Below are positions 1,979-26,568 of a stretch of 32,000 nucleotides of DNA, piece by piece. This DNA comes from Akkermansia muciniphila ATCC BAA-835 (GTDB lineage: Bacteria > Verrucomicrobiota > Verrucomicrobiia > Verrucomicrobiales > Akkermansiaceae), in assembly GCF_000020225.1 (NCBI RefSeq), contig NC_010655.1:720001-752000 (forward strand). Direction: 5' to 3'. Numbering within the stretch: the stretch's first letter is position 1; each line of letters starts with the position of its first letter. The translations under genes and the position numbers were made by a program. Under the pieces are notes generated by a model, which made no database searches, had not been told where the DNA came from, and saw only the letters and a list, made by a program, of their open reading frames with translations.

Positions 1979-5173
<3,195 letters not shown>

Positions 5174-6094: not shown

Positions 6095-6106
6095 GCTAAT
6101 AAAACA

Positions 6107-6823: not shown

Positions 6824-6874
6824 ACCGAAAAGAGGCCTTTCCTTTTCCGGAGGCCATGCATGAACGCCGCATCC

Positions 6875-9877: not shown

Positions 9878-9944
9878 GACCTCCTATCCGGAAAGTTGCG
9901 GAGACGGCTTTTCCCGGAACCCGGCAAGGATGCCGAAGACCGCA

Positions 9945-10280
9945 TCAATGCCCGGGGGCCAACTTCAGCCCGATAATGCCTATCAGCAGGAAGGATGCCG
10001 CCAGCATGCGCCAGATATTGGAAGAATCCCCGAACCACAGAATACCAACCAGGAACGTGCCCAACGCGCCAATGCCGGTCCATACCGCATAAGCGGTGCC
10101 GATGGGGATGTTCCGCTGGGCAAGCCACAAAAGAAAACCGCTCAGAACCATGCTGAAAACGGAGCAGGCGATACAGGCGGCGAATTTGCCGGGCCCAGTG
10201 CCGGGCGTTTGAGAAAGTTTGAAACCCAGAGGCCATCCGATCTCGCAGAGACCGGCCAACACCAGATAAATCCAGGACAT
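9945..10280 (-). CDS. sugE: SMR-family small multidrug resistance protein / guanidinium exporter (SugE/Gdx-like)
   Basis: 111-aa ORF with four TM segments. MSWIYLVLAGLCEIGW contains the conserved membrane Glu, and GTAYAVWTGIGA is typical of SugE/Gdx. Confidence 0.9.
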   Translation of the reverse strand: MSWIYLVLAGLCEIGWPLGFKLSQTPGTGPGKFAACIACSVFSMVLSGFLLWLAQRNIPIGTAYAVWTGIGALGTFLVGILWFGDSSNIWRMLAASFLLIGIIGLKLAPGH

Positions 10281-10592
10281 ATATCGAAACGGGGAATCAC
10301 CTTCCGCTCACCGGCCTTCCCAAACGGAAAAAGCTCCAAGGGCAACGGATGCCCTGCAGAATATCTGCCCGGCGTTTCCGATCAAGGCAATAATTTTTTA
10401 TGAACCCGTATAAAATGGGATACACACTGTTTCACCGGCTTCGGAAAAATGGTTCTTTCAAACATGAAATCTACAAAAACATATTTACCATAAGTCACAT
10501 ACCTGTTCTTTTTAATTAAAAAACGGTCTTATTTCAAGCCTTCTCGAATATCCTTGAGCCGGAAGCCTCCGCCCTGTGATATTGGTTCCGTT

Positions 10593-11306
10593 ATGGCTAT
10601 TCATTATTCACTTACCGCCATCATTCTGACCGGAAGCATGGCTTCCACGGGAATCGCGGCTACTACATGGACAAGCGCCACCCCCGATCTCTCCCCCACA
10701 TCCCAGTACCTGTGCACCGGATGGTCTTTCTGCCTGGGAGAAGCAGGGTCAAGGCTTATCACGACCAGCACGCCGCATTCCCAGCCAATGGATGCAGAAG
10801 TACGTCTAACGTCCATTGATTTCAATTTGAGAGAGGCCAGAAAGAACGGAACAGGCCTGCTCATCGTGCAACATTCAGGCGGTATCCAAACCATTATCGG
10901 CAAATCGGACAATACCATTTCTACTGGAAACTATGTTTCCGGAACATGGACTTTTACCAACGGGCCAATTTTAAACACAGGCACTACTTATTACGCCATG
11001 TTTACTGAAACGGATCTGTCCGCCATCAGCATAGGAGACTGCTGGGACAACGATTTCTTCTCCATCAACGGTTCCCGGCGTATCGACAATTCCATGGATA
11101 ACGCAGCCGGAACGGGGCCGTCTGTCAACCAGCTCGCTTTAGTCGGCTCCAATTGGCAAAAGGACTTTATTGCCCGTAACGATAACATGGTTCCCACAGG
11201 TCTTCAAATCCATACACAGGCCGTACCGGAACCGGCAAGCGCATTGCTGCTTACGTTTGGCATGGCGCTTCTGCCCTTCAGACGCCGCAAATCTCCCACA
11301 CTTTAA
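10593..11306 (+). CDS. PEP-CTERM sorting-domain secreted protein, function unknown
   Basis: Track ORF starts at a TTG (10554). I prefer the ATG at 10593 (MAIHYSLTAIILTGSMASTGIAA, a signal peptide). The C-terminus VPEPASALLLTFGMALLPFRRRK is a canonical PEP-CTERM anchor: PEP, a TM helix, then a basic tail. Confidence 0.8.
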   Translation: MAIHYSLTAIILTGSMASTGIAATTWTSATPDLSPTSQYLCTGWSFCLGEAGSRLITTSTPHSQPMDAEVRLTSIDFNLREARKNGTGLLIVQHSGGIQTIIGKSDNTISTGNYVSGTWTFTNGPILNTGTTYYAMFTETDLSAISIGDCWDNDFFSINGSRRIDNSMDNAAGTGPSVNQLALVGSNWQKDFIARNDNMVPTGLQIHTQAVPEPASALLLTFGMALLPFRRRKSPTL

Positions 11307-11324
11307 TTACAACATCCATTTCCC

Positions 11325-12635
11325 ATGAATCTGCACCTATCATCCCTGGCAGCGTTGCTCCTGGCATCATACCTTCCGGCGCAGGCCACCGTACCGGCCC
11401 ATTCCCCTTCCACAGCGTTCATCCGGAGCGGCCTCCCGATCGTTGATCTGGATCAATGGACAGAAGCCCAGGTAGTAGTCGACAAGGAAAAAGGAAAATA
11501 CCTGGGACATCCAACGACGCTATTGCTGAAAGACGGAAAAACCATTCTGTGCGTTTATCCTAAAGGGCACGGCTCCGGGGAAATCATCCTGAAGAAATCC
11601 ACGGACGGAGGCAAAACATGGAGCGAAAGGCTGCCGGTTCCAGAATCATGGAAAACCAGCAGGGAAGTACCCACACTATATGAAACGGAAGACTCCCGGG
11701 GCAAGCGCCGCATTCTGCTTTTCAGCGGCATTCAGGGGGGAAACAGAAACACAGCCCCCAGAAACCGGATGGCGGTCAGTGAAGACAACGGAACAACATG
11801 GTCCGAGCTGACCCCCATTCCCAACCAGGTCGGAGGCATTGTTGTCATGAGTGACCTGATTCCTCTAAAAACGGGAAAAGGGCATTATATGGCCTCCTAC
11901 CATGCCAATGCCCGGGGCAAAGACGGACATGGAGAGTTTCACACCATTGAACAATATGTCACCTTTACGGAAGACGGTGGGCTGACCTGGACCTCCCCCC
12001 AGGTCATTTTCCCAGGGACAAGGGACATGCACCTGTGTGAGGGAGGTTTTGTCCGCAGCCCGGACGGAAAAACAATCGCGCTGCTGTTACGGGAAAACAG
12101 CAGGCACCATAACTCCCAGATCATGTTTTCCGAAGATGAAGGTAAAACATGGACTCCCCCCAAAGAACTGCCGGCAGCCCTGTGCGGAGACCGCCACCAG
12201 ATTCTTCCCCTGCCTGACGGAAGGCTTCTGGTTCAATTCAGGGATGCTCCCCCGACCAGGAAGAAAGGGCAGGCCGCCAGCCCGACGGAAGGAGACTGGG
12301 TAGCATGGATAGGCCGGTGGGAAGACCTGAAAAACGGCACGGAAGGCTCATATAAAATCCGTTTTAAGGACAACCGCAACGGTTGGGACTGCGCCTACCC
12401 GGCCGCCGAACTATTGCCGGACCATACCCTGGTATGCACTACCTACGGACACTTTGACAAAGGGGAATTGCCATACATCCTCTCCGTCAGATTTAAAATC
12501 AGCGATACGGACAAGATGGTCAAACAATATGCGGGGAACAATCACCCCAAGATCAAAAATGACACAGGAGCGGGAGAAACCGTTTTTGACCCCAATGAGC
12601 CGGACTCCGTTAATCGCCTTCTGAAACGTCCCTGA
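11325..12635 (+). CDS. BNR/Asp-box repeat, sialidase-like beta-propeller protein (GH33-like)
   Basis: 436-aa ORF with a signal peptide and four Asp-boxes (STDGGKTWS, SEDNGTTWS, TEDGGLTWT, SEDEGKTWT). It starts 18 nt after the PEP-CTERM gene. Confidence 0.85.
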   Translation: MNLHLSSLAALLLASYLPAQATVPAHSPSTAFIRSGLPIVDLDQWTEAQVVVDKEKGKYLGHPTTLLLKDGKTILCVYPKGHGSGEIILKKSTDGGKTWSERLPVPESWKTSREVPTLYETEDSRGKRRILLFSGIQGGNRNTAPRNRMAVSEDNGTTWSELTPIPNQVGGIVVMSDLIPLKTGKGHYMASYHANARGKDGHGEFHTIEQYVTFTEDGGLTWTSPQVIFPGTRDMHLCEGGFVRSPDGKTIALLLRENSRHHNSQIMFSEDEGKTWTPPKELPAALCGDRHQILPLPDGRLLVQFRDAPPTRKKGQAASPTEGDWVAWIGRWEDLKNGTEGSYKIRFKDNRNGWDCAYPAAELLPDHTLVCTTYGHFDKGELPYILSVRFKISDTDKMVKQYAGNNHPKIKNDTGAGETVFDPNEPDSVNRLLKRP

Positions 12636-12650
12636 ACATCATATTCCTCC

Positions 12651-13838
12651 ATGCTCCCGAAAAACGCGGAACGGAAAAAACACAACCGGCAAGACCGCTT
12701 GCCATCAGAAGTAACCAGAAAGTATGATTCCCCCATGGATACACAGCCTGGGGAAACGGCCCAGTCAAGAACCGTTGCCAAATTAAAGCACCGCCTCCGG
12801 TCCGGGCAATTCATAAACGCCATGCCCGGAGAACGGGAACTAAGCAAAGCGCTCGCCGCCGGCAGGGGAACCATCCGGAAAGCCCTCGCGCAGCTGCAGG
12901 AAGAGGGCTTCATAGCGGCTCCGGATAAAAACAGGGCCAGGAAAATCATCAGGACTTCTACAAGCCCTGTGCAGCCTCTGCCCCTGCTGGAAAAACGCGT
13001 TTGCTTCCTCTCCTCCGTTCCTATCCGGGACATCCCCCAAAGCATTTGGGTGGAACTTTACCAACTGGAAAAAGCGTTGCGAATCGAAGGTATGGCGCTT
13101 CAGCTGGTTGAAGCCACATGGGCAGAAAAAAACAATCCGGACATGCGGCTGGAAAAACTGGAAACAGAACATCCCGGCTCCTGCTGGATACTCTACCGTA
13201 CCACGGAAGAAGTACAACTGTGGTTTAAGCGGAAAAGCATCCCCTGCCTGGTCCGGGGAGTTTCCTACCCTTCCTCCAATCTGCCGTATCTGGATACGCA
13301 TTGGGAAGTGCTGGCCGGTCACGCGGCCGGCTACCTGTACCAGAAAGGACACCGTCGGATCGCGCTCTGCATACCGGATTCCAAGCTGAGAGGCAACAGG
13401 CTCATGGAACAGGGGTTCCTCTCCTTCCAGGGGGAACATTATACCCCCTATGTCATCCGCATGCCGTCGGATGCCATTAAGGCAGCCCAGGAACTCAACC
13501 GAATTGACCTGGCGGATACGGGTATCACCGCCTTAATTTCTACCCGGAGCAGAATGCTGATATCCATCATCTCCTGGGCGGCCACCATGGCTAAAAGCAT
13601 CCCGGAGGAAATAAGCCTGCTCAGCCTGGTTCATGAACCTTACCTGAACCATGTCACTCCCCCCATTACCTCCTACCGCTCCCCTGCAGAAAAAACGACG
13701 CGCAGGCTTATCCGGATGATTGAAGCCCTGCTGGAACATCGCCGTATCTCCAATAGCCTCATCCTCCCGGAGTTATGCCCCGGCCAATCCATCAGTACGT
13801 TGAATTCCCCCCCTCCTGCCTTTGAATCCATCAAGTAA
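12651..13838 (+). CDS. transcriptional regulator with a GntR-type winged HTH and a LacI/PBP1-type sugar-binding domain
   Basis: 395-aa ORF. MPGERELSKALAAGRGTIRKALAQLQEEGFI is a GntR-like HTH. The C-terminal part (HRRIALCIP..., ITALISTRSRMLISII..., IPEEISLLSL) resembles periplasmic-binding-fold effector domains. The start could instead be the ATG at 12735. Confidence 0.8.
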   Translation: MLPKNAERKKHNRQDRLPSEVTRKYDSPMDTQPGETAQSRTVAKLKHRLRSGQFINAMPGERELSKALAAGRGTIRKALAQLQEEGFIAAPDKNRARKIIRTSTSPVQPLPLLEKRVCFLSSVPIRDIPQSIWVELYQLEKALRIEGMALQLVEATWAEKNNPDMRLEKLETEHPGSCWILYRTTEEVQLWFKRKSIPCLVRGVSYPSSNLPYLDTHWEVLAGHAAGYLYQKGHRRIALCIPDSKLRGNRLMEQGFLSFQGEHYTPYVIRMPSDAIKAAQELNRIDLADTGITALISTRSRMLISIISWAATMAKSIPEEISLLSLVHEPYLNHVTPPITSYRSPAEKTTRRLIRMIEALLEHRRISNSLILPELCPGQSISTLNSPPPAFESIK

Positions 13839-13897
13839 TAAGGCCTGATCTGCCTTCTTCCATAACGCTCCGCTACGGAGGAAAGCATTCAATCTCC

Positions 13898-13923
13898 CCC
13901 TCCCGGAGACACCTCCGGAAGGG
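13898..13923. terminator. hairpin between the convergent regulator and sialidase genes
   Basis: ccctcccggag / acac / ctccggaaggg forms 10 bp with one C-A mismatch. There is no clear U-tract on either strand, so a terminator function is uncertain. Confidence 0.3.
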
Positions 13924-13947
13924 AAAAACGTATTAGCCGGCTTTCCT

Positions 13948-15159
13948 CTACTTGAGAACAGGAGCTTTTTTGCCGGGAGCCAGCCCTGTGTCTTCTCCGT
14001 CCGTCAGCCATTCCATGGTAATGGGAACAAACTTCAGCTTTTTAATATGCTCCTGGTTCTCCTCATAAAGCACCCCAACGATGCCGGGTTCCACCATGGC
14101 AAGGCTGGAATAGGCAAAACCGCCCTCGCCCAGCAATTTCTTCACCGGCCAGGTCTTGCCGTTGTCATAGCTCATGGCCACCTGTCCCTTAATGCGCCGG
14201 CCCGCACTGGGCCCGGAAAACAGAATGCGGCTTTTGCCGCCATAGGCAGGCTGGTCGCTCAGGGAATACGTCATCAGGGAATTCTGGGTACTGTCGCAAA
14301 ACAGCTCCGGAGCGTCCTCCACCTGTCCCCAGGTCTCCCCGCCATCCTGGGACCACGCAATACGGCGGCAATTGCCTGCGCCCCAATGGCGCGCAACCAT
14401 CACAACGCCGCCGTTATCCGTTTCCGCAATGGACGTCTCGTTCACCATGCCCTTCATATTGGCAGTCGGCTGGCCCAGCTTCCAGCTCTTGCCGCCGTCA
14501 TCGCTGTAAATGCAGGAAATCACCCATTTGCCGAACGGCCCTTCATTCATCGGAATCACCAGGCGGCCCTTGTGGGCGCCGCTCTTCAGCTGGGTTCCCG
14601 CATTCGGGCCGGACGCCATAATATCCACTCCGGAAGGACGCTTGGTCGTCTTCGTGATCTCCTGCGGCTTCGTCCAGGAAGAACCTCCGTTCCTGCTCTG
14701 AATCATGAAATTGCGGATGCACTTTTCATCATCCCATCCGTCCGGGATATTGGGCTGCCGCTCCTTGACCCCGGCAGGGTAACGCTGGAATACGACAGTC
14801 ACGGTCCTGGTTTTGGCATCATAAACGGGGCACGGATTATTGAACGTGGCGCCATGGGCCTTGGCTATCGCCCGGGGACGGGACCAGGTCTTCCCGCCAT
14901 TCTTGCTGACGCTCATGATAATATCGTTCTCCCCCTGGTCGGTATTTTTGTACCGTCCTTCGGCGAATGCCAGAAGCTGGCCCTTGCCGATACTGAGCAG
15001 GGCGGGAATACGGATGGACGCATAGGGATTACCCTCCCCGGCGCTGAATACGGTCACAGCCCTGTCCGTAGGGAAACCGGTTTTCTCTTCCTGCCCGAAC
15101 GCCGGCAATGCCACGGCGCATACGGCACTCATCAAACACTTGAATACGGAATTCATCAT
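13948..15159 (-). CDS. nanH: exo-alpha-sialidase (GH33)
   Basis: Track ORF extends to 15435, but the signal peptide begins at the ATG at 15159 (MMNSVFKCLMSAVCAVALPAFGQ). The protein has the RIP motif (ASIRIPALL), five Asp-boxes (SKNGGKTWS, SRNGGSSWT, SDDGGKSWK, SQDGGETWG, SYDNGKTWP) and the C-terminal AYSSL...LYEE. It matches my recollection of A. muciniphila Amuc_0625. Confidence 0.95.
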   Translation of the reverse strand: MMNSVFKCLMSAVCAVALPAFGQEEKTGFPTDRAVTVFSAGEGNPYASIRIPALLSIGKGQLLAFAEGRYKNTDQGENDIIMSVSKNGGKTWSRPRAIAKAHGATFNNPCPVYDAKTRTVTVVFQRYPAGVKERQPNIPDGWDDEKCIRNFMIQSRNGGSSWTKPQEITKTTKRPSGVDIMASGPNAGTQLKSGAHKGRLVIPMNEGPFGKWVISCIYSDDGGKSWKLGQPTANMKGMVNETSIAETDNGGVVMVARHWGAGNCRRIAWSQDGGETWGQVEDAPELFCDSTQNSLMTYSLSDQPAYGGKSRILFSGPSAGRRIKGQVAMSYDNGKTWPVKKLLGEGGFAYSSLAMVEPGIVGVLYEENQEHIKKLKFVPITMEWLTDGEDTGLAPGKKAPVLK

Positions 15160-15566
15160 CCTCTTCACCTTATTCCATTTTCCCCTGCCGCACAACAACC
15201 ATGTCATGCATGTGCGCCAAGACCAGAGAAAAAGGAACACTAAAGAGGAACGCGCGGCAGGAACGCGATACCGCCGCCGGGCAGCCCGGAAGGCTTCGGC
15301 CCAAAATTCAAACCAGCAAGAAACGTGCCCATCCGAATACGGATCCCCGGAAAAGCGCCCGCCGGAACCGGGGAAAATATCCGGAAACGCGAAATCGTCT
15401 GAAAAATCCCTGCCGCACCGCCAAAGCCATTCCACACATCAACCGCCCGGCCTCTCTTCTGACGAACTACCTGCCTATTTATTCATCAAGAGAAAAATAG
15501 TGAAAGAAGAAGAAAACGGAACCTGTATCTTGTAACATCACAGAATCACCTGCTTCCCGTACTGTC

Positions 15567-17087
15567 ATGAACCGAATCCTTCCATTACTATCCCTTCCCC
15601 TGCTGTCGCTCGCAGCGGTATTTGCCGCTAATACGCCGGAACACATCGGCAACGACCTCAAACTGTTCAAAGACTCCTCCTGCACCTCCCTGAAGCCGGA
15701 TGTGAAAAACACCTCCGCCTTCCAGTCTGACGCGATGAAGGAACTCGCGACCAAAATCCTGGCAGGCCATTACAAGCCGGACTACCTGTATGCCGAATAC
15801 CGGGCCCTCCCCTCACCGCGCCAGACGGGGAAAAATCTCAGAATCGGCGACGGATTCAGCAAATACGACAACATGACGGGCGTCTATCTGGAAAAGGGGA
15901 GGCATGTCGTCCTGGTCGGCAAGACGGAGGGGCAGGAAATCAGCCTCCTTCTGCCGAACCTGATGCGCAAGCCGGCCGAAGGAGTGCAGCCCACAAAAGA
16001 CCCCAACGGCTGGGGATTGCATAAAAAGCAGATTCCGCTCAAGGAAGGAATCAACATCATTGACGTGGAAACGCCCGCCAACGCCTATATCAGCTATTTC
16101 ACCGAAGACGCCGGCAAGGCGCCGAAAATCCCCGTCCATTTCGTAACCGGCAAAGCCAACGGCTACTTTGACACCACCCGGGGCGACACCAACAAGGACT
16201 GGGTTCGCCTGCTTGACCAGGCCGTCTCTCCGATCATGGATGCCCGGGGAAAATACATCCAGGTTGCCTACCCCGTAGAATTCCTGAAAAAATTCACCAA
16301 AGACCGCGGAACCGAACTCATCAACGCCTACGACAAGCTCATCGGCATCCAATACCAGCTGATGGGCCTGGATAAATACGGCAAAATCCCGGAAAACCGC
16401 GTCCTGGCCCGCGTGAACTTCAACTACTACATGTTCCGCGACGGAGACGGAGTCGCCTACCTCGGAAACGACGGGACAATGCGCATGGTAACCGACCCTG
16501 AAAACGTTCTCAAGGGCGATGCCTGCTGGGGATTCTCCCACGAAGTCGGACACGTCATGCAAATGCGCCCGATGACCTGGGGCGGCATGACGGAAGTCAG
16601 CAACAACATCTTTTCCCTGCAGGCCGCAGCCAAAACAGGCAATGAAAGCCGCCTGAAGCGCCAGGGCAGCTACGACAAGGCGCGCAAGGAAATCATCGAA
16701 GGGGAAATCGCCTACCTGCAATCTAAGGATGTCTTCAATAAGCTGGTTCCCCTGTGGCAGCTCCATCTTTACTTTACCAAAAACGGACACCCCGACTTCT
16801 ATCCTGACGTCATGGAGTACCTGCGCAACAACGCGGGAAACTACGGAGGGAACGACACCGTCAAATACCAGTTCGAATTCGTCAAGGCATGCTGTGACGT
16901 CACAAAAACCGACCTGACAGACTTCTTTGAGAAATGGGGATTCTTCAAACCCGGAAAATTCCACATCGGCGACTATGCCCAGTACGACTTTAACGTCACC
17001 CCTGAAATGGTGGAGGAAACGAAAAAGTGGATTGCCGGCAAAGGCTACCCGAAACCCGAAACCGACATCACCGAACTAAGCGAGTAA
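15567..17087 (+). CDS. M60-like zinc metallopeptidase (mucin O-glycopeptidase)
   Basis: 506-aa ORF with a signal peptide (MNRILPLLSLPLLSLAAVFA) and an HEXXH zinc site (GFSHEVGHVMQ). It matches my recollection of the characterised Amuc_0627 mucinase. Confidence 0.9.
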   Translation: MNRILPLLSLPLLSLAAVFAANTPEHIGNDLKLFKDSSCTSLKPDVKNTSAFQSDAMKELATKILAGHYKPDYLYAEYRALPSPRQTGKNLRIGDGFSKYDNMTGVYLEKGRHVVLVGKTEGQEISLLLPNLMRKPAEGVQPTKDPNGWGLHKKQIPLKEGINIIDVETPANAYISYFTEDAGKAPKIPVHFVTGKANGYFDTTRGDTNKDWVRLLDQAVSPIMDARGKYIQVAYPVEFLKKFTKDRGTELINAYDKLIGIQYQLMGLDKYGKIPENRVLARVNFNYYMFRDGDGVAYLGNDGTMRMVTDPENVLKGDACWGFSHEVGHVMQMRPMTWGGMTEVSNNIFSLQAAAKTGNESRLKRQGSYDKARKEIIEGEIAYLQSKDVFNKLVPLWQLHLYFTKNGHPDFYPDVMEYLRNNAGNYGGNDTVKYQFEFVKACCDVTKTDLTDFFEKWGFFKPGKFHIGDYAQYDFNVTPEMVEETKKWIAGKGYPKPETDITELSE

Positions 17088-17143
17088 CGTGATTCGGCAA
17101 TCCCGACGGTTCCCTTTAAATATCAAATATATCTGAAACTGGT

Positions 17144-17257
17144 AAAAAAGACTAACTATAGAGATTACAGATAAGGTTTCTCAAAAGATTTAGCTCGAGA
17201 TAATAAAATGTGCATAATCATTCAAAAAAGACTAAATACGAACATGTTGAGAGATTA
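17144..17257 (+). repeat. direct repeat aaaaaagactaa (two copies 80 nt apart), each followed by gagatta
   Basis: Exact 12-mers at 17144-17155 and 17224-17235. gagatta follows at 17161-17167 and 17251-17257. My rough estimate for a chance 12-mer repeat in 600 nt of AT-rich DNA is below 0.1. Confidence 0.35.
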
Positions 17258-17470
17258 TATTCTTATTTCAAATGATTCCTATAAATTTAGAAAATATGTG
17301 GATGGTTTAGTGAGCTTATTAGTAAATCCAAGGATATATTTTCTCCCATAAAGAAAGCTACTACCAAATCCTTGGATACAACTATTCAAGAACAAAAACT
17401 TCATGACTCTTTTAACTTCCTTATGTATTTATTACAAAGTATCAAAAGATTTGAAAACTCAAATTTTTAA
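17208..17470 (+). pseudogene. possible decayed ORF remnants inside the islet
   Basis: A 47-codon ATG ORF runs 17208-17351 (MCIIIQKRLNTNMLRDYILISNDSYKFRKYVDGLVSLLVNPRIYFLP*). It is overlapped by a start-less 59-codon open frame at 17291-17470 (...KKATTKSLDTTIQEQKLHDSFNFLMYLLQSIKRFENSNF*). One frameshift would join them. No homology recognised. Confidence 0.2.
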
Positions 17471-17528
17471 ACCAAGAAATAAAGAGATTCCGCACAGCAA
17501 CTATTGAATTCAATCTGACGAATTAATT

Positions 17529-17546
17529 AAATTTATTAATAAATTT
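17529..17546. repeat. perfect 18-bp palindrome AAATTTATTAATAAATTT (candidate operator)
   Basis: Read directly: aaatttatt pairs with aataaattt with no mismatch. It lies about 180 nt upstream of the islet ORF. The palindrome is certain; any function is speculative. Confidence 0.5.
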
Positions 17547-17727
17547 GAAATAACGATAGATTTTTATATCAAAAATTTACCATTGTCATGAATTATTAAC
17601 CGAGCAGAATTTCGTGACAATTTTTTGTTGAAAAACTAAATATTATAAGAACATATTTGAATAAAACTCGAAAAGAAATAGATAACTGATTTTTCTAACG
17701 TTTCATCTTTCCTTGAAATCATTGTTG

Positions 17728-18453
17728 ATGAACAAGAGATATAAGCAAATTTGTTATTTATGTGGAAAGAAACTATCTAGAGGTTCTTCTAATAGAACTG
17801 TGGATCATATTCCACCAAGAGGATTTTTTCCTGAAAATTTTGATCGAAAAGTTAATTTACCAACTGTTTTATGTTGTAGAAAATGTAATAACTCATACGC
17901 TAGGCTTGATGAAGAATTCCGATTCTTGCTCTCTAGTGGCAATTATCGTTCAAAAGCAGGAGATTGGATTTGGAACAACAAATCCGAACCTAAAATTGGA
18001 AAAAGTCTAATTAATTTTTGTGCAGACCTAGTAAGAGGTTTCAGGGGATATGAGATTCTTCAAATGGAAGATTCTTTTTCACAAGCGGTCAACATAACAG
18101 TTTCTTACACAGAAAAAATACTTCCTTTTTTTAGCAGACTAGCAAAAGGATTTTTAGTGTATGATTCACATAATTATAAAAATTATGACTTTGTTGTATT
18201 TCCCTTGTATAATTATCCAGAAATATACAATATAATGATGAAATATCCTGATAAAAGATCATTTTTAGATGATAACGGGGAACATATATTTTCTTATGTT
18301 TATCAACATGATCAAAAATTCGATAAAGGATTCTTTTTCTTTTCTTTTTATAAAGATCAGCATTTTGGTGTTCTTTTTGAAAGGTCAATTTACACTTCTA
18401 CTTCAGAAAAGAAAATTTTGGATGATATAATTAAGAAATGGAATATTTATTAA
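17728..18453 (+). CDS. HNH (H-N-N variant) zinc-finger nuclease-domain protein with an uncharacterised C-terminal domain
   Basis: Track ORF starts at TTG 17713. The first ATG is at 17728, giving 241 aa. Motif: C9-x2-C12 ... D26-H27 ... N43 ... C50-x2-C53-N54 (ICYLCGKKL...TVDHIPPRGFF...VNLPTVLCCRKCNNSY), a classic bba-Me/HNH finger with two CxxC zinc knuckles. I recognise no motif in residues ~60-241. Confidence 0.8.
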   Translation: MNKRYKQICYLCGKKLSRGSSNRTVDHIPPRGFFPENFDRKVNLPTVLCCRKCNNSYARLDEEFRFLLSSGNYRSKAGDWIWNNKSEPKIGKSLINFCADLVRGFRGYEILQMEDSFSQAVNITVSYTEKILPFFSRLAKGFLVYDSHNYKNYDFVVFPLYNYPEIYNIMMKYPDKRSFLDDNGEHIFSYVYQHDQKFDKGFFFFSFYKDQHFGVLFERSIYTSTSEKKILDDIIKKWNIY

Positions 18454-18498
18454 TCTAAACAAAACAACTTATTTCCCCATTTCTTCCTTATAGCCTTG

Positions 18499-18540
18499 CA
18501 AACAAAAAACCGCAATATACTCATCACGAGTATATTGCGG
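18499..18540 (-). terminator. rho-independent terminator of tRNA-Ser
   Basis: Perfect 13-bp stem: ccgcaatatactc (18510-18522) pairs with gagtatattgcgg (18528-18540), with a 5-nt loop. On the minus strand it is followed by UUUUUUGUUUG (the complement of 18499-18509). It begins 12 nt after the tRNA 3' end. Confidence 0.75.
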
Positions 18541-18551
18541 CAGAAAATTGA

Positions 18552-18642
18552 TGGCGGACAGGGAGGGATTCGAACCCTCGGTACCGGTTTGCGGTACACA
18601 CACTTTCCAGGCGTGCTCATTCGACCACTCTGACACCTGCCC
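18552..18642 (-). tRNA. tRNA-Ser (anticodon GGA), type II with a long variable arm and encoded CCA
   Basis: Hand fold of the reverse complement: GGGCAGG UG UCA GAGUGGUCGAA UGA G CACGC CU-GGA-AA GUGUG U-GUACCG-CAAAC-CGGUAC-C GAGGG UUCGAAU CCCUC CCUGUCC G CCA. It has a 7-bp acceptor stem, a 3-bp D-stem, a 5-bp anticodon stem, a 6-bp variable-arm stem, a T-loop UUCGAAU and G73. It closely resembles E. coli tRNA-Ser(GGA) as I remember it. Confidence 0.93.
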
Positions 18643-18675
18643 GTTGGAGATTGTGCTAGATAGGAAAGCAGGGAT

Positions 18676-18704
18676 AGAATAACGGCAGAAGAGAGGTTTG
18701 GCAA
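18676..18704 (-). promoter_or_regulatory. candidate sigma70-type promoter for tRNA-Ser
   Basis: On the minus strand: TTGCCA (18704-18699), a 17-nt spacer, then TATTCT (18681-18676). The -10 element ends 33 nt upstream of tRNA position 1. This rests on a motif match only. Confidence 0.3.
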
Positions 18705-19339
18705 TCTTTTTTTCATCCGGAAGGTATTTCCCCGTTTTCCCCGAGTTTTTTCACGTTTCCGGCGGTTGCGCGAAGAGGATGAAAAGTGCCCCGACAGCGC
18801 GAGAAAATCTTCAACGGGCATAAACAGCAACGAAGCGTATTTTCAGAAGTTTTGAAAGGAACAGGTTTCCGTGGTTCACAAAAATTATCCATGAGGGCAT
18901 GGCAGATTTTCGCCCTCCCTGCCCTGTTTTTCCCACGGGGCAAATAAGAATTTTTCTCTTTCTCCACCTTTACGGCTTCCGGGTAATCGGGGAAGGTTCA
19001 AGCAAAAACCTCTATTGATAAGCTTGCTTCCGTCCGGGCTCCAGGATTGACCAGCAGCCGTTTGAGAAGTTTCAGGAGCGAGACGGGAAGAGAAGACTGA
19101 AGGATCCCGGAAGCCCAGGGTTCCGAGAGTTCCGGGAAGGCGCGGCAGGAATGGGAATCCATGCTGTAAGAAGAGAAGGCGGAACATGCCGTTTCACCGC
19201 GTATCATCATTTCCGCGGCTCCGCATTCCTCCCGTCCTCAAAAAAGGGCAAAGGCTTCCGGCATGTCCCGGAAAAGGCGTTTCCCGACCGCACTTCCCCC
19301 TTGACGGATGCCCCAAAGACGGGTTTGCTAGTCCTGCGC

Positions 19340-20359
19340 ATGGGAGAGTCCTTTTACACACGCACCACGGAGGCCCCCTCCTCCGCCTTCGATTTGTCCC
19401 TCAGACCGCCCGCTTTCAGCGAGTTCTGCGGCCAGGAAAAGATTAAGGACCGCCTGATGCTGATGGTGGAAGCCGCCAGACAGCGCGACGACGTGCTGGA
19501 CCATATCCTGTTGAGCGGCCCGCCGGGCCTGGGGAAGACGACGCTTGCTAATATTATCGCGAATGCCGTCGGCTGCCGCATTCATACGACTTCCGGCCCC
19601 CAGATTGAAAAGGCGGGAGACCTGGCCGGCGTGCTGACCAATCTGGAAAAGGGGGATATTCTGTTTATTGACGAGATCCACCGCCTGCACCCGGCCATTG
19701 AGGAGTATCTGTACCCGGCCATGGAGGATTTCCGGCTGGATATTATCATCGACCAGGGGCCGAACGCCCGCTCCATCCAGCTCAACCTGCCCAAGTTCAC
19801 CCTGGTGGGGGCCACCACCCGCGCCGGGATGCTGACCAGCCCGCTGCGTTCCCGCTTCGGCCTGGTGAACCGGCTGGATTATTATACGCGGGAGGAGCTG
19901 TGCGCCATTATCGAACGGTCCGCGGGGCTGCTGAACGTGCCCGTGGACCCGGAGGGCGCCCTGCAGATCGCGCTGCGCTCCCGCGGCACGCCCCGCGTGG
20001 CCAATTCCCTGCTGCGCTGGGTGCGGGATTACGCCCAGGTGCGCGGCGACGGCGTGATTACGGAGCAGTTGGCGCACGATGCCCTGACCATGATTGAGAT
20101 TGACGACGACGGCCTGGACGAGATGGACAAGCGCCTGCTGGAAGCGATGATTTACAAGTTCAACGGCGGCCCGGTGGGCCTTTCCTCCCTGGCGGTGGCC
20201 GTAGGGGAGGACGCTTCCACGCTGGAGGACGTGCACGAGCCTTTCCTGATTATGCAGGGGTATATCAGCCGCACCCCCAGGGGGCGCGTGGCGATGCCCT
20301 CCGCCTATCTCAAGATGGGAGCCGCGCCGCCCGCCAACGGCCAGGGGTGGCTGTTGTAA
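19340..20359 (+). CDS. ruvB: Holliday junction branch migration DNA helicase RuvB
   Basis: Track ORF starts at 19151, but alignment by eye to RuvB begins at the ATG at 19340 (MGESFYTRT...[19 protein letters not shown]). Walker A is [11 protein letters not shown] and Walker B is LFIDEIHRL. The protein is 339 aa. Confidence 0.95.
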
Positions 20360-20480
20360 GCCATTCATTTACGACATGAAAGGAGTCCTGCGTTTTATGC
20401 TGGTCATCAGGCCCTCTTTCTTTTAGACTGTTTCCACATAAAACGTCAGGACGTTTTCTGTTCATCATACGCCCAAAGCT

Positions 20481-21500
20481 ATGGCCGCACATTCTGATAT
20501 TCCCTTTAAAAGACTGCCCGTCAAGATTATCGGTACGGGTTCCTATGTTCCGGAACGCCGCCTGACCAATGCGGATCTGGAGAAGATGGTGGACACTTCC
20601 CACGAATGGATTATTGAACGCACGGGCATTGTGGAACGCCGCATCGCCGCCCCTGACGAGTACACTTCCCATATGGGGACGAAGGCCGCCCAGCGCGCTC
20701 TGGAATCCTGCGGGCTGAAGCCGGAGGATATTGACCTGATTATCGTCGCCACCATCACGCCGGATACGTTCACCCCTTCCACTTCCTGCTATATCCAGGA
20801 TGCCCTTGGCGCCAAGAATGCCGCCGCCTTTGACATTTCCGCCGCCTGCTCCGGCTTCCTGTTCGCCATGAAGACCGCCGTCCAGTACATCGGCACCGGC
20901 CAGATGAAAACGGCGCTCATCATCGCCGCTGAAAAACTTTCCACCGTCGTCAACTGGGAGGACCGCAGCACCTGCGTCCTGTTCGGGGACGGCGCCGGGG
21001 CAGCCGTGCTCCAGGCTTCCACAGGGGAAGAGGGAGAAGGTTCCGTCCTTGCCACGGATATCGGTTCGGACGGCTCCCTGCATGACCTGCTCCAGATTCC
21101 GGGCGGCGGCTCCCGCTGCCCCACCACAGCGGAAAACGCCCATGAACGCCTGGCTACCCTGGCCATGCGCGGCAATGAGACCTTCCGCCATGCCGTCACG
21201 CGCATGAAGGCTTCCGCCGCCAGCGTCATTGAACGCGCCGGCCTCACGGCGGACGATATCCAGCTGATTATTCCCCACCAGGCCAATCTCCGCATCATTA
21301 ACGCCGTAGCGCAGCGCCTTTCCATTCCTGAAGATAAGGTGTTCGTGAACATTGAGAAGTACGGCAACACGTCCGCGGCCGCCGTCGCCATCGCTTTTGA
21401 CGAAGCGCGCCGTTCCGGCAGATTCGGCAAGGGAGACAACGTCGTCCTGGTCACATTCGGCGCCGGGCTTACCTGGTCCGCCGCCGTTATCCGCTGGTAA
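20481..21500 (+). CDS. fabH: beta-ketoacyl-ACP synthase III
   Basis: 339-aa ORF with the active-site Cys in DISAACSGF, then HQAN and GNTSAA motifs. Typical FabH. Confidence 0.95.
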   Translation: MAAHSDIPFKRLPVKIIGTGSYVPERRLTNADLEKMVDTSHEWIIERTGIVERRIAAPDEYTSHMGTKAAQRALESCGLKPEDIDLIIVATITPDTFTPSTSCYIQDALGAKNAAAFDISAACSGFLFAMKTAVQYIGTGQMKTALIIAAEKLSTVVNWEDRSTCVLFGDGAGAAVLQASTGEEGEGSVLATDIGSDGSLHDLLQIPGGGSRCPTTAENAHERLATLAMRGNETFRHAVTRMKASAASVIERAGLTADDIQLIIPHQANLRIINAVAQRLSIPEDKVFVNIEKYGNTSAAAVAIAFDEARRSGRFGKGDNVVLVTFGAGLTWSAAVIRW

Positions 21501-21528
21501 TATTCTTTTTCACCCCCCCTCCATCATC

Positions 21529-22659
21529 ATGACCACTGAACCATACGGCAAAAAAAATCCGTTTCCCGCTCCCGTCCTCTCCGTCAGGCATATCACCGGG
21601 GAAGGCAGCCCCAAGGAAACCATCCACATTGAATACAGCCTGGACGGTTCCGGGATGAATTATATTGCCGGGGACGCCCTGGCCGTCATTCCCGCCAATG
21701 ACCCCTCCCTGGCGGACGCCCTGATTGACAAGCTCGGCCTCAGCCCGGATTCCCAGGTTCCCACGCCCGAAGGGGAAACCGCAAGCCTGAAAGACGCCCT
21801 GGTTCACTGCTATGACATTACCAATGTCAACAAAGCCCTGCTGACCAAGTGGGCCGCCGCCTCCGGCAGCCAGGAGCTGGACACGCTTCTGGCCGGGGAT
21901 AAGGACGCCCTCAGCGATTTCCTGTGGGGCCGGGACGTGCTGGATCTGGCCACGGAATACCCCGCTTCCTTCGAATCCGCGGAGGCTTTTGTCGGCATCC
22001 TGAAAAAGATCATGCCGCGCCTTTATTCCATCGCCTCCAGCCCGAACGCCCATCCCGAACAGGTTCACCTGTGCGTGGGCGCGGTACGCTATACGGCCCG
22101 TGACCGCAAGCGCGGCGGCGTTTGCTCCACCTATATGGCGGACCGCCTCCAGCCGGGCCATACGGCCAGGGTATTCGTACATACCAACAAGAATTTCCGC
22201 CTTCCGGAAGACGGGGACACCCCCATCATCATGGTGGGCCCCGGCACCGGCATCGCCCCTTTCCGGGCATTCTGGGAGGAACGCGCCGCTTCCGGCGCCA
22301 AGGGCGGCAACTGGCTGTTCTTCGGCAATCCGTACAAGGCCACCGACTTCTGTTATGAAGACGAGCTGAACCAGTTGACCGGCACCGGCAAACTGAAGTT
22401 GTCCGTGGCCTGGTCCCGAGACCAGGAAAAGAAGGTGTATGTGCAGCACCTCATGGTCCAGGAAGGCGAAGAGCTCTGGAAATGGCTGGAAGCCGGCGCC
22501 TGCTTCTACGTCTGCGGGGACGCCTCCCGCATGGCGAAGGATGTGGACAACGCCCTTCATGAAGTCATCCAGACCTGGGGCCATAAAACTCCGGAGGAAG
22601 CCGCGGCATATGTGGCGGACATGAAACAGCACCGCCGTTACCAGCGGGACGTGTACTAA
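21529..22659 (+). CDS. CysJ/CPR-family FAD- and NADPH-binding flavoprotein reductase lacking the FMN (flavodoxin) domain
   Basis: Track ORF starts at 21352 and overlaps fabH. The ATG at 21529 (MTTEPYGKKNPF) sits 28 nt after the fabH stop. Motifs: RLYSIASSP (FAD), GPGTGIAPFR (NADPH), and a C-terminal YVCGDASRMAKDV...YQRDVY. Confidence 0.85.
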   Translation: MTTEPYGKKNPFPAPVLSVRHITGEGSPKETIHIEYSLDGSGMNYIAGDALAVIPANDPSLADALIDKLGLSPDSQVPTPEGETASLKDALVHCYDITNVNKALLTKWAAASGSQELDTLLAGDKDALSDFLWGRDVLDLATEYPASFESAEAFVGILKKIMPRLYSIASSPNAHPEQVHLCVGAVRYTARDRKRGGVCSTYMADRLQPGHTARVFVHTNKNFRLPEDGDTPIIMVGPGTGIAPFRAFWEERAASGAKGGNWLFFGNPYKATDFCYEDELNQLTGTGKLKLSVAWSRDQEKKVYVQHLMVQEGEELWKWLEAGACFYVCGDASRMAKDVDNALHEVIQTWGHKTPEEAAAYVADMKQHRRYQRDVY

Positions 22660-22966: not shown

Positions 22967-24031
22967 TTATTCCAAATCCTGCCGGGCACCGCAAACGGCC
23001 CGTTTCACTTTCCTGAGCTTGAAAAAGAAAACCATGCAGAATAAATACAGCTTTTGCGGCAGGCAGTGGACGATACCCATCCATCCCGGCCGCCTCAACG
23101 CCCATCTCCGCCGAAAGGGATAACTCCACCAATTCTGCTGCCGGTCAATGCTGTCTATGATTTTTCTCCTCTCCTCCATTTCGGCAAGCAGTTCTTCCCG
23201 CGAGCGAAAAACCGGAGCAAGGCCCTCCAGCAATTCCCCGCACAGTTCCAACCCCGCCTCCTTGCTTTTTTTCAACTGGCTTTTCATTTCCAGCTCCCTT
23301 TTTTCAAAGGCCGCCGCCGCCCGCATGTCGGCAAACCGGAACGCGCTGTTGACAGCGCAAATATTTTTAAGCGCAAACCGGTAATAATATAAGGATATGC
23401 CCGGCATTTCATAAATGTTGCCCTGAAGCCATGCGTGGAACCCCATCAAGTCGTCTTCAAAACTGGCCGTCATCCGCAGGGAGCTACCCCATTCGCAGGC
23501 GCTCTTCCTGATCATCATGCTTCCTCCGTAATGGGCGGAAGAAGAAAAAGCTCCCGCCTGAAGCACAACAGCCGGCCTTTCCCGCGGAGCAGCAGGAAAG
23601 GCCGGGAATTCAAACGCAATGCCCGGTTCCTCATAGACGCTGGTCATCTGGCTGACCACAGCCACGGCATCCGGGCGTTCCATCACTGCCCAGGCAAAAA
23701 GCCTGCATCTCCAGGGGAAGGAACAATCGTCCCCATCCTGACGGAGAATCCATTCATGGGAAGCCAGACCAACCGCCTGCCGGATATGAGGCCCGCGCCC
23801 CAGCGGCGTTTCATTCCGGTTTAAGATTACCCGGTACGGCCCCCTGTATTGAGCCGCCATTTCCTGCATGACGGAGAAGGTTCCGTCGGAAGAGCCGTCG
23901 TCCGAAAGGATGATTTCCACCGGCCCTTCATAATCCTGCCCGAATACGCTCCGGATAGCATCCCTGATGCTGCTCTCCTCATTATGCCCGGTCAGGATAA
24001 TGCTGATGGAAGGGAGTTCCGAAGGGTTCAT
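22967..24031 (-). CDS. family 2 glycosyltransferase with a C-terminal coiled-coil/TM extension
   Basis: Track ORF uses TTG 24061. I prefer the ATG at 24031 (MNPSELPSISIILTGHNEE). SDDGSSDGT and the DGDD motif are typical of GT2. The C-terminus is charged and helical (EKRELEMKSQLKKSKE...) and ends in a hydrophobic segment. Confidence 0.85.
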   Translation of the reverse strand: MNPSELPSISIILTGHNEESSIRDAIRSVFGQDYEGPVEIILSDDGSSDGTFSVMQEMAAQYRGPYRVILNRNETPLGRGPHIRQAVGLASHEWILRQDGDDCSFPWRCRLFAWAVMERPDAVAVVSQMTSVYEEPGIAFEFPAFPAAPRERPAVVLQAGAFSSSAHYGGSMMIRKSACEWGSSLRMTASFEDDLMGFHAWLQGNIYEMPGISLYYYRFALKNICAVNSAFRFADMRAAAAFEKRELEMKSQLKKSKEAGLELCGELLEGLAPVFRSREELLAEMEERRKIIDSIDRQQNWWSYPFRRRWALRRPGWMGIVHCLPQKLYLFCMVFFFKLRKVKRAVCGARQDLE

Positions 24032-24586
24032 GAAGAAAAAGCACGGAAAAGAAAGCGTCAAACATGAAGAGGACCATGTCCTTTTCTGTTTATTAATAAG
24101 GCATCACGTTCATACCGGATTCCAAATCCGGGGTCAAGGGTTGATTTTTATACCAAGGAACTTATGTTGCGCGGACGTTTTGTCATCAAGAATCTCCCCC
24201 TTGCGGGCAGGGAGTCCGAAGCCGGGAAAACAGGACGAAAGATTCTGCTTTCCCTTACTGCTCCCAACATACACATTTTTTCATAAGCAATTATTTTTTA
24301 GAATCATAGAACTCTTAGAACCAGACCTAGCCGGAATACCTCCATACCCCACCGGTTCCATGAGGTCTTGGGACAATTCTCTGTTCATTCATGCTGAATC
24401 CGGAATTTCCCAATCGAATTTGGAATTCGCTATGACAGGTTCATTCGCGCACTGATGAATCATGGGAGGAACGATGGATTCGTCCCCTGCCATTCACCGG
24501 TTGCAATGGTTACAGCCCCATCAGAATCATGTCCTCCATATCCTGATTCCCGTTCCACTCACGAAGCAGTTCATCATTCCCCTTGT

Positions 24587-25624
24587 ATGCAGAAACCGTT
24601 CTTCAGCATTATTATCCCGGCCTATAATCTGGAGAATTATATTGCTGCCACCCTTCAGTCAGTACTGGTTCAAACATTTCAGGATTTTGAGATCATCATC
24701 GTGGATGACGGTTCTTCCGATGAGACTGTTTCCATCATCCAATCTTTTCATGACCCCAGAATTCGCCTGGTTTCCCAAGTTAACGGCGGCGTATCGCGAG
24801 CGCGAAACGCAGGGATGAAGAAGGCCGTGGGGGCTTACATCGCTTTCCTGGACGGAGACGATTACTGGTATCCCGAGCATCTGGAGCTGGCAGCCGATTT
24901 TTTCAACCGTCATCCGGAGATATTGGCCTATGCCAACCGCTACATGAGGGATGAACTGGAGGCCATCCCGCCGCGCCCTCCATCTTATCCCGAATCTATC
25001 CGGAGATTGGGGATACGGGGAGTGCTTTTCATGAATTCCAGCAGCGTAATCCTGAATTCGTCTCTTGCGTCCCGGCTTCCCCCCTGGGAAGAAGCGATGC
25101 CCTATGGGGAAGACGGCCTGTACTGGACACGGTGCATGCGGGGGACAGGCCTGATCGGGCTGGGAGGCTCCGTCACCTCCATCTACAGGCAGAGAGCTTC
25201 TTCCGCCATGCATGACGAGCATTACCAGCATGTCTCCCTCCACTCGCTCATTGCGCCTCTGCTGAATGAGCTTGAAGCCATGAAAAATCCCAAATGGCAA
25301 TTTGCCGTCCATTATCTGGTCATCAGGGAATTGCATCCCAAAAGACTGTTATCGCTCAACGCAGAGGAGCGGATTTCCCTGACGGGCAGGATCAGGAAAA
25401 TCATGCACCCATGCCTGAACCGGCCGTTTTTGGACTCCTATATGAAAGCGTGTTCCGCAAGGGCAGGCATGGAACAGTCATTTTCCGCGCTCATGGACAG
25501 AACCATGTTCTCCTGCAAATGGCTGGACCGCCTGGAAAGGATGGGCCGCTCCCTGTTTTTCCGGCTGCAAACCAATAACGGAATGGGGGGCAAACACCAA
25601 GATCCAGTCCGTTCACGCTCATGA
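24587..25624 (+). CDS. family 2 glycosyltransferase
   Basis: Track ORF starts at 24455. The canonical GT2 N-terminus begins at the ATG at 24587 (MQKPFFSIIIPAYNLENYI...VDDGSSDET...FLDGDDYW). Confidence 0.85.
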   Translation: MQKPFFSIIIPAYNLENYIAATLQSVLVQTFQDFEIIIVDDGSSDETVSIIQSFHDPRIRLVSQVNGGVSRARNAGMKKAVGAYIAFLDGDDYWYPEHLELAADFFNRHPEILAYANRYMRDELEAIPPRPPSYPESIRRLGIRGVLFMNSSSVILNSSLASRLPPWEEAMPYGEDGLYWTRCMRGTGLIGLGGSVTSIYRQRASSAMHDEHYQHVSLHSLIAPLLNELEAMKNPKWQFAVHYLVIRELHPKRLLSLNAEERISLTGRIRKIMHPCLNRPFLDSYMKACSARAGMEQSFSALMDRTMFSCKWLDRLERMGRSLFFRLQTNNGMGGKHQDPVRSRS

Positions 25625-26568
25625 ATATCGTATACGCTACAGACGATAACGGCGCGCTGGGAACGGGCGTGAGCATTGTGTCCCTCATGGAGAATTTGCC
25701 GCCCGGCGTTCATGCCGATATTTACATCATGACTGGCGGGTTAAGCGGGGATAATACGGCCCGTTTCCATTCCCTGCAACAGGGCTACAATCTCCATTTG
25801 CACTTCATTGACATGAAGGATAAATATACGGATTTCCCCGTCGGTTCCAAATGGTCGGCGGCGACGTATTACCGCCTTGGCCTCGCAGGGGAACTTCCCG
25901 CCACGGTAGAACGCGCCCTTTACGTGGATATTGATACCATTTTCAACAGGGACATAAGCCCCATGTATGAATCCGAATTCGGAGATTGCCTCATTGCCGG
26001 CGTTTTCACCACGGAAGATTTATCCGAGGAGTCTTTTTCACGCTGGAAGAGAGAAATGAATCTGGGCCGGGACTCCATTTACATCAATGCCGGCGTCATT
26101 CTTTACCATATCGGAAGAATACGTGAAGAATGTTTTGAATCCCAGGTTTTATCCTGGGCGAAAAACAATATTCACCGCCTTTCCTGGCAGGATCAGGATA
26201 TTTTGAATGTATGCTATCAGCAGCGTATCTTGTTGCTTCACCCCATGTGGAACATTTGCGACGGGGCTATCTGGTCCATTCGCTGGGAAGGCGTGACAAG
26301 CTTCAGGAATAATCCCCTAAAGCCGGCAGACCTGCTGGAAGCCGCCAGGCGGCCGGGCATTATCCACTACTGGGGCCATCCCAAACCCTGGCATCCCAAC
26401 AGCATTCGCCAGGATTACGGATTGTTCTACAAGTATTGGAAGAAATCTCCGTGGAAAGATGACATCAGGGATTTCCGGAAGCAAAACGATCCCGGCCGGA
26501 TGTTCATCTCCAAAATGAGATGCCTCCTGGGAAAGGGTAAACGGCTTTTACAAGGCAGGCATCAGTAG
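25621..26568 (+). CDS. family 8 glycosyltransferase (LPS/glycan alpha-hexosyltransferase-like)
   Basis: 315-aa ORF with NIVYATDDN, YYRLGL and YVDIDTIF (a DxD motif), typical of GT8. Its start overlaps the upstream stop in an ATGA arrangement, which suggests translational coupling. Confidence 0.9.
   Translation: MNIVYATDDNGALGTGVSIVSLMENLPPGVHADIYIMTGGLSGDNTARFHSLQQGYNLHLHFIDMKDKYTDFPVGSKWSAATYYRLGLAGELPATVERALYVDIDTIFNRDISPMYESEFGDCLIAGVFTTEDLSEESFSRWKREMNLGRDSIYINAGVILYHIGRIREECFESQVLSWAKNNIHRLSWQDQDILNVCYQQRILLLHPMWNICDGAIWSIRWEGVTSFRNNPLKPADLLEAARRPGIIHYWGHPKPWHPNSIRQDYGLFYKYWKKSPWKDDIRDFRKQNDPGRMFISKMRCLLGKGKRLLQGRHQ

Follow-up and report, generated by a model that had tools for sequence, protein, structure and literature searches.

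Between the gene for an M60-like O-glycopeptidase and the 3' end of the transfer RNA (tRNA) gene tRNA-Ser(GGA), the chromosome of Akkermansia muciniphila ATCC BAA-835 turns abruptly AT-rich for some 1.3 kb, which raises two questions: how did this islet come to lie there, and what is the role of its single intact gene, which encodes a 241-aa protein with an HNH motif? Both were addressed in a window of 32,000 nucleotides (contig NC_010655.1, positions 720,001 to 752,000 of the forward strand; coordinates below are those of the window unless a locus is named) and by comparison with the same site in related loci, numbered with the prefix L. The islet is the present occupant of an Akkermansia defence hotspot between M60 and the tRNA-Ser(GGA) 3' end. 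Its allele is a reduced one, it probably descends from an element that integrates at the tRNA, and its protein is most likely a stand-alone DNA nuclease directed against phages or other invading DNA, as judged from motif conservation, purifying selection and gene neighbourhood. We hold these four statements jointly with moderate confidence, each at its own strength in what follows.

The compositional break is pronounced. In successive 400-nt windows from 17201 to 18400 the G+C content is 0.247, 0.307 and 0.275, with 0.54–0.65 in both flanks. Over the 1,319 nt that genome comparison delimits as the variable segment (17153–18471) it is 0.274, compared with a mean of 0.554 ± 0.041 (minimum 0.446) for 555 other windows of the same length within the 32 kb, which places the islet at z = -6.8; its tetranucleotide distance from the remainder of the window gives z = 19.4. 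No similarly low G+C content is found elsewhere within the 32 kb. Milder dips (0.42–0.48, with a window mean of 0.54) at 10401–11200, 24001–24800, 26401–26800 and 28801–30000 are far weaker than the islet. An initial annotation of this DNA had described a sharp and compositionally alien AT-rich islet, and both scans bear it out, as recounting does its hand counts of G+C (6/60 at 17521–17580, 17/60 over the first 60 nt from the ATG at 17728, 29/60 at 16981–17040 and 37/60 at 19441–19500). Its sense of sharp bounds was well founded, but the ends it gave, 17113 and 18498, have to be moved. On the right, 66 of the 116 loci listed regain homology exactly at 18472, so that the variable segment ends at 18471/18472; on the left, the 14 loci listed of the closest lineage lose homology at 17152/17153, and in other lineages homology on the M60 side stops at 17104 or 17086.

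What lies between these ends is sparse. The islet contains a single long intact open reading frame (ORF), that of the HNH gene; neither the ORF list nor Pfam reveals an integrase within 17088–18551, no transposase was seen in the islet of the window, the window holds no second copy of the tRNA 3' end (at up to 3 mismatches in 28 nt), and flanking direct or inverted repeats are no better than chance. The annotation's account of one intact gene with no integrase, transposase or duplicated attachment (att) site is therefore accurate for the window. An Rfam scan of the islet brought the tRNA alone to threshold. The sequence from 13728 to 22453 is 100% identical to that of the complete A. muciniphila genomes CP174100.1 and CP071807.1; the exact junction of M60 and islet had no match in species-representative genomes, a collection that seemingly lacks the window's own genome.

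The nature of the site becomes apparent from other genomes. Metagenome contigs scanned with the terminator/tRNA-end junction yielded at least 116 further loci, a sample selected for one type of terminator arm; cargo was identified by PADLOC or Pfam, and ten representative cargo proteins of these loci were scanned with PADLOC. The order is constant in the window, in L001–L018 and in the 26 metagenome loci listed in which both flanks can be seen: M60 stands to the left of the slot, and to its right come the terminator arm, tRNA-Ser and RuvB. The content is not constant. Among 99 loci listed, the kilobase next to the right boundary sorts into 56 classes; its mean G+C content is 0.32, and 99% of the stretches lie below 0.40. 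Identified cargo includes AbiH, Vsr, a receiver-like protein and a histidine-kinase-type ATPase (L012), PDC-S31 with PDC-M36A (L014), and a 5-methylcytosine methyltransferase, an HNH restriction enzyme and Vsr (L017). Among the ten scanned proteins PADLOC matched Thoeris ThsA (1e-194), a SIR2-APAZ-pAgo fusion (E = 0), SIR2 (1e-135), an OLD/AriA/GajA-like ATPase, a TIR protein, a type II methyltransferase (MTase_II, 1e-142) and Hp1. Judged from this gene list, the slot has the conserved bounding genes, the strain-variable content and the recognised defence content of a defence island, and the defence context that had been suspected for the islet is present at the same position elsewhere.

The slot is also never empty among the loci at hand. 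The initial annotation had envisaged a small discrete insertion, present in some genomes and absent from others, with an empty-site allele joining the M60 flank directly to the terminator. Cargo polymorphism was indeed found; the empty site was not, since each of the 143 related loci listed is filled, with differing cargo. The window allele is the smallest among the loci listed: 1,456 nt separate the M60 stop codon from the tRNA junction, against 2.0–12.6 kb in all other loci listed with both flanks.

Sites of this kind have precedents. Core defence hotspots flanked by conserved genes, cDHS1 and cDHS2, have been described in Pseudomonas aeruginosa (PMC10250203), and integration hotspots of defence islands in Escherichia coli (PMC10121019). 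The Akkermansia slot shares with both a fixed position, conserved bounding genes, nearly constant occupancy and a varied content of known defence systems alongside genes of unknown function; with the E. coli hotspots it would further share the transport of cargo by mobile elements directed to dedicated sites, as we infer here for Akkermansia. It differs in that this slot, in a member of the Verrucomicrobiota, is bounded on one side by the terminator arm of a tRNA, exact to the nucleotide, in that its alleles often include a diverged non-coding element of 0.8–1.2 kb, and in that the window allele is a 1.3-kb single-gene relic. The locus is thus of a known kind, a defence hotspot fed by mobile elements, with a cargo family that is uncharacterised. 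No description of such a hotspot in Akkermansia was found in the literature.

How cargo reaches the slot is suggested by sister genomes in which elements are still recognisable. In L002, L014, L017, L111, L220 and L230 the tRNA is cut 19–28 nt from its 3' end and foreign DNA follows; the last 19–28 nt of tRNA-Ser(GGA) are the attachment core of an element family in these sister genomes. The general expectation that the 3' side of a tRNA gene is a landing site for foreign DNA holds for this tRNA in sister genomes, as truncated and duplicated tRNA ends attest. A gene set comprising p369 (369 aa), a helix-turn-helix (HTH) gene and Int405 occurs in 13 of the 143 loci listed (L113, L111, L220, L230, L014, L154, L166, L174 and L215 among them). 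Int405, of 405 aa, carries the tyrosine-recombinase motifs GVRLSE, YRHSY and MGNSIQMIRKHYY, and by these motifs is likely to be the integrase of the family. Genes of 366–371 aa beside the truncated tRNA were considered for the same role and set aside, as phmmer against the PDB did not recognise them as integrases. In some strains of the L001 type (L002, L003, L004 and L007, at 7281–12726) the truncated tRNA is followed by AbiEii, DUF932, an SRA-HNH protein (ScoMcrA-like) and Vsr, so that this tRNA hosts yet another element rich in defence genes.

The most complete case is L113, in which an element of 11.5 kb (996–12463) lies between two copies of the tRNA end 11.5 kb apart. From left to right it consists of a tRNA fragment whose terminator flank differs, a backbone with a G+C content of about 0.43, AT-rich cargo, the 80-nt arm that separates cargo from tRNA in the window too, and the intact tRNA. 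Given how site-specific recombination works, the sequence left of the intact tRNA arrived as part of the element. In L186 a single block comprises an integrase-like gene, a backbone, a cargo arm and an intact tRNA, and its right arm is that of L113; in L111 and L220, copies of the non-coding element are found 8.5–9.5 kb into the integrated elements. The islet of the window occupies exactly the cargo position of L113 and probably represents what erosion has left of such a cargo arm. Its AT-rich cargo and the adjoining 80-nt arm would have arrived together, as the part nearest the tRNA of a tyrosine-integrase element using the last 19–28 nt of the tRNA, and the backbone and the distal att copy would have been lost later, long ago. 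Like other tRNA-targeting integrative islands, the sister element is bracketed by a 19–28-nt repeat of the tRNA-Ser 3' end and places its cargo next to the reconstituted tRNA; the window differs from them in having neither the integrase nor the distal repeat, both of which are seen in sister loci, and retains just the cargo arm, itself partly deleted.

The explanation that survives best beside element delivery is that the hotspot is purely chromosomal, a native intergenic slot whose cargo is swapped by homologous recombination in the M60 and tRNA/terminator flanks with no element involved. It agrees with the lack of an integrase backbone between the flanks in all 26 of the loci listed in which M60 and tRNA are both visible, with boundaries that coincide with the edges of conserved sequence, and with the conserved genes that flank the core hotspots of P. 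aeruginosa (PMC10250203). Against it speak L113, where the intact tRNA has cargo and arm on its element-derived side and the displaced fragment has a different terminator flank, the single block of L186 and the copies of the non-coding element within integrated elements. We therefore regard it as possible but on balance unlikely, and continue to favour delivery as an element arm.

That non-coding element also reveals what the window allele has lost. AT-rich and 0.8–1.2 kb long, it occurs in 59 of the 116 alleles listed, mostly on the M60 side (for example L012 7655–8890, L001 3565–4486 and L014 7583–8504). Its copies share a median identity of about 72%, are more diverged than the core flanks and are at times partly duplicated; they show no codon (period-3) periodicity, no stop-free stretch of more than 100 aa and no Rfam match, and the first two of these features led to the rejection of a protein gene. 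In the window, blastn and tblastx of the 640 nt upstream of the HNH gene against all loci gave nothing past the first 66 nt, and a profile search alone uncovered a vestige of the 3' part of the element. Since the vestige begins exactly at the left junction, that boundary is read as a deletion scar in a larger ancestral islet. To the right of the vestige, the spacer up to the HNH gene has no blastn, tblastx or Rfam relative outside the window allele, the same sequence recurring in L092, L168 and L223–L228. It presumably holds the promoter of the HNH gene; shuffled sequence yields at least as many promoter-like sites. Most of the non-coding element has thus been deleted from alleles of the type-strain kind, leaving the orphan spacer and one surviving gene.

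Two further observations concern the same stretch. In several loci (e.g. L152, L142, L217, L200 and L180) the 3' part of the non-coding element carries a very acidic, Trp-rich ORF of 61–73 aa (...EENPDWNRFWGYNPNPDDPHEFGECMEDWHDYEWRKEQ...), intact in about 5 of 19 element copies and interrupted by stops or frameshifts in most of the rest; the 47-aa counterpart in the window is probably a pseudogene. In one strain (L229) the spacer has received an insertion, in the most AT-rich tract of the islet, with HTH, NYN-domain and IS1595-family transposase genes; positions 1–1149 of that locus correspond to window 16383–17531 and positions 3797–8726 to window 17524–22447.

Table 1. Features of the islet and its immediate flanks (window coordinates).
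Feature	Position	Strand	Length	Basis or remark
M60-like O-glycopeptidase gene, left core flank	15567–17087	+	506 aa	Pfam Peptidase_M60, E = 3.8e-50
Conserved 3' flank of M60, common to closest lineage, ending at left junction	17088–17152	+		Homology to 14 loci listed
Vestige of 3' part of non-coding element	17153–17315	+	163 nt	nhmmer, 24-copy profile, profile positions 599–765, E = 1.1e-7
Degenerate ORF, counterpart of small acidic ORF	17208–17351	+	47 aa	Aligned translations
Orphan AT-rich spacer upstream of HNH gene	17352–17727	+	376 nt	Includes most AT-rich tract, 17521–17580 (6/60 G+C)
Site of IS1595-borne insertion in one strain (L229)	17524–17531		2,647 nt inserted	L229 1150–3796; 8-bp target duplication
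HNH gene, sole intact cargo gene (ACD04465.1; UniProt B2UPI8, B2UPI8_AKKM8)	17728–18453	+	241 aa	N-terminal HNH motif and C-terminal alpha/beta domain of about 175 aa
Conserved arm between cargo and tRNA	18472–18551	-	80 nt	66/116 loci listed resume at 18472
tRNA-Ser(GGA)	18552–18642	-		ARAGORN; Rfam tRNA, 51.8 bits

Of the flanks themselves, the M60 protein is near-identical to PDB entries 7SCI and 7YX8, and a terminator scan places the intrinsic terminator of the tRNA inside the 80-nt arm, as a hairpin (18509–18541) followed by a U-run. A second polymorphism of presence and absence lies beyond the tRNA: 63 of the 116 loci listed have the arrangement of the window up to RuvB, and about 16 break at 18784–18789 and resume at 19221; in the L001-type lineage a gene for a 493-aa GH20 hexosaminidase lies between tRNA-Ser and RuvB (L001 7063–8771), where the window has 430 nt (18790–19220).

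The surviving gene is known publicly by no more than the names 'HNH endonuclease' and 'hypothetical protein', and no paper was found that names its presumed locus tag, itself a guess from gene order. Its N-terminal motif has the form CxxC...DH..P...N...CxxCN, of the beta-beta-alpha-metal type; PHROG HNH families match the N-terminus (E = 4e-6) and a profile search reaches the HNH endonuclease 4H9D in the PDB (E = 0.004). The family proved to be far larger than a word-indexed search suggested: three relatives by that route, against 1,680 at E <= 1e-3 and 208 at E <= 1e-10 by exhaustive profile search, mostly of 210–240 aa and aligning nearly end to end. They come from Verrucomicrobia, Planctomycetes, Desulfobacterota, Bacteroidetes and Zixibacteria, and are likewise named 'hypothetical' or 'HNH endonuclease'. 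In an alignment of 86 members, 64 of which match HNH_5 (E <= 0.01), C9 and C12 are invariant and D26, H27, P29, P30, C50, C53 and D61 are at least 90% conserved, and the closest members also share N43 and N54; the 241-aa protein has the full set of catalytic and zinc-binding residues of an HNH nuclease. An AlphaFold2 (AF2) model built with the 86 sequences is of good quality (predicted local distance difference test, pLDDT, 85; predicted template modelling score, pTM, 0.82), whereas one built with three sequences was unusable (pLDDT 47). The model consists of a strand-strand-helix core (residues 23–56, pLDDT >89), a helical linker and a C-terminal alpha/beta domain. Foldseek found no match to the model in the PDB or BFVD with a template modelling (TM) score above 0.25, and a profile of the C-terminal domain retrieved nothing from PDB sequences. 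The conserved positions of that domain are glycines, phenylalanines and one arginine, because of which it appears binding or regulatory rather than enzymatic. A mechanism can be proposed in which the N-terminal, zinc-stabilised HNH module would cut DNA and the C-terminal domain, with no conserved residues of catalytic type, would provide target recognition or restrain the nuclease.

Known defence nucleases resemble this protein in part. Matches to PDC-M01B (46 of the 86 family members) and to PtuB of Septu (21 of 86) were returned by PADLOC, in each case aligning the HNH core of about 45 residues alone; PDC-M01 is itself reported to overlap Septu (PMC11811056). All are small HNH proteins (200–290 aa) found in defence islands, PtuB and PDC-M01B as the nucleases of systems with two genes. 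In the PDC-M01B profiles, however, the core lies at about residues 95–150 of 285, and in the 241-aa protein at residues 3–55. A Septu system would also require a PtuA-type ABC ATPase, and none adjoins the HNH gene: the window has no upstream gene within the islet, and the 414-aa neighbour found in a sister lineage has no PADLOC or Pfam hit. With similarity confined to the core, a best PtuB match of E = 0.012 and no ATPase partner, membership of either system was rejected. The modification-dependent type IV enzymes McrA and ScoMcrA offer a resemblance in principle only: they too are single polypeptides with an HNH nuclease and an extra domain, reside in defence islands and need no methyltransferase, but the order of the 241-aa protein is reversed, with HNH first, and its extra domain is unlike SRA or other known readers by sequence or fold. 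Neighbours of relatives elsewhere include SecA at one locus, a type IIG restriction-modification gene at another, and HEPN_AbiV with a trypsin-like protease at a third; no consistent partner emerges across the wider family.

The gene is old at this site, to judge from its divergence, rather than a recent landing. Members of a sister lineage (L001–L010) carry a 90% identical copy at the same place. Between the lineages its synonymous divergence (dS) is 0.275, close to that of RuvB (0.317; M60, 0.53), and the ratio of nonsynonymous to synonymous divergence (dN/dS) is 0.17, from which it follows that the gene has been at the site since before the lineages split and has been kept functional. The exact 241-aa protein is encoded on at least 1000 contigs, complete genomes included. 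Its G+C content at third codon positions is nonetheless 0.20, compared with 0.73–0.84 in neighbouring genes. A minority of A. muciniphila strains (22 contigs; P0275, P0276) has a split copy, in which residues 1–146 are followed by 8 unrelated ones and a second product covers residues 170–241.

In L001–L010 the HNH gene has company: a 414-aa gene (4751–5995) stops 5 nt short of the HNH start codon or, if an alternative start is taken, overlaps it by 4 nt, and homology between the window and this allele begins exactly at the ATG. The 414-aa family comprises more than 460 clusters, mostly in Bacteroidota, some members matching Pfam PF26900 Phage_lambda_Ea47; relatives lie beside a retron type I-C reverse transcriptase, inside a conjugative element or before a HEPN_Cthe2314-like gene, and the protein is a candidate defence component. 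The 241-aa nuclease could accordingly be the orphaned second member of a two-gene system and, deprived of its partner, inert or decaying, and both the tight spacing and the homology that starts at the ATG suit this view, as does the split gene of some strains. We consider it doubtful, as the ORF of the window is intact with all motif residues in place, is under the selection described above and persists unchanged on so many contigs, and as HNH relatives lack a 414-like neighbour while the 414-aa relatives keep the other company just listed. At the family level a conserved two-gene system was rejected, the two families not being generally linked, and a nuclease acting by itself remains the reading we prefer.

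A lone nuclease needs control, and the 575 nt upstream of it contain small ORFs; the initial annotation had named addiction modules among those typical of such a context, and in a toxin-antitoxin or addiction module the nuclease would be a toxin checked by a small protein or RNA from the AT-rich upstream stretch. This now seems very unlikely. Conservation with the sister allele does not extend to the upstream stretch, whose place is taken there by the unrelated 414-aa gene; the sole recognisable content of the stretch is the decayed remnant of the non-coding element, it has no Rfam match and it tolerates the 2.6-kb insertion of L229, and the wider HNH family has no consistent small neighbour, so that an addiction module fails for want of a conserved partner gene. 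That the gene is a selfish free-standing homing endonuclease or derives from a phage, as the PHROG matches to its N-terminal motif might suggest, is barely credible given that no relative occurs in 50,697 phage records or IMG/VR contigs, that it occupies a single fixed Akkermansia locus with the divergence of the flanking genes, and that those matches are limited to the generic HNH core. A phage or plasmid origin was likewise rejected, with zero phage or viral matches and one weak plasmid match.

Against the joint account that we favour (a hotspot occupant, reduced, delivered as an element's cargo arm and encoding a stand-alone antiphage or anti-DNA nuclease) stand several considerations. Firstly, its integrative part is read from other genomes, because the window has no integrase or att repeat of its own, and exchange of cargo by homologous recombination in conserved flanks, a serious alternative, would give the same sharp boundaries. 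Secondly, an empty site may have been missed in a metagenome sample of at least 116 loci chosen by one type of terminator arm. Thirdly, the 241-aa protein scores 24.7 bits against Pfam HNH_5, below the cut-off of 27.5 bits, PADLOC has no model that covers the family beyond the 45-residue core, and a nuclease or defence role is a prediction for every member. Finally, the split copies in some strains imply that the gene is dispensable, and its position directly after the 414-aa gene in the sister lineage implies that it may need a partner absent from the window. A more far-reaching version of the account can also be entertained, in which the slot would be a cargo platform of tRNA-Ser-specific elements, rather than a passive landing site, bracketed by the 80-nt arm and the non-coding element with its small acidic ORF and exchanging defence cassettes in the manner of an integron, with the 241-aa protein a new stand-alone antiphage nuclease whose C-terminal domain would be a new sensor fold; we think this improbable, if attractive.

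Akkermansia muciniphila is a gut commensal and a live therapeutic in development, and its repertoire of phage defences is little described. In a modest sample, no fewer than 56 alternative cargo sets occupy the slot beside the well-studied M60 mucinase gene; many of their genes are unannotated, and the slot serves as a marker that distinguishes strains. As in P. aeruginosa, the hotspot has two conserved flanks, and these could guide the retrieval of candidate defence systems from genomes and metagenomes of Akkermansia. A minimal test case is provided by the allele of the type strain: a lone HNH protein with several hundred uncharacterised relatives and a C-terminal domain that matches nothing solved.

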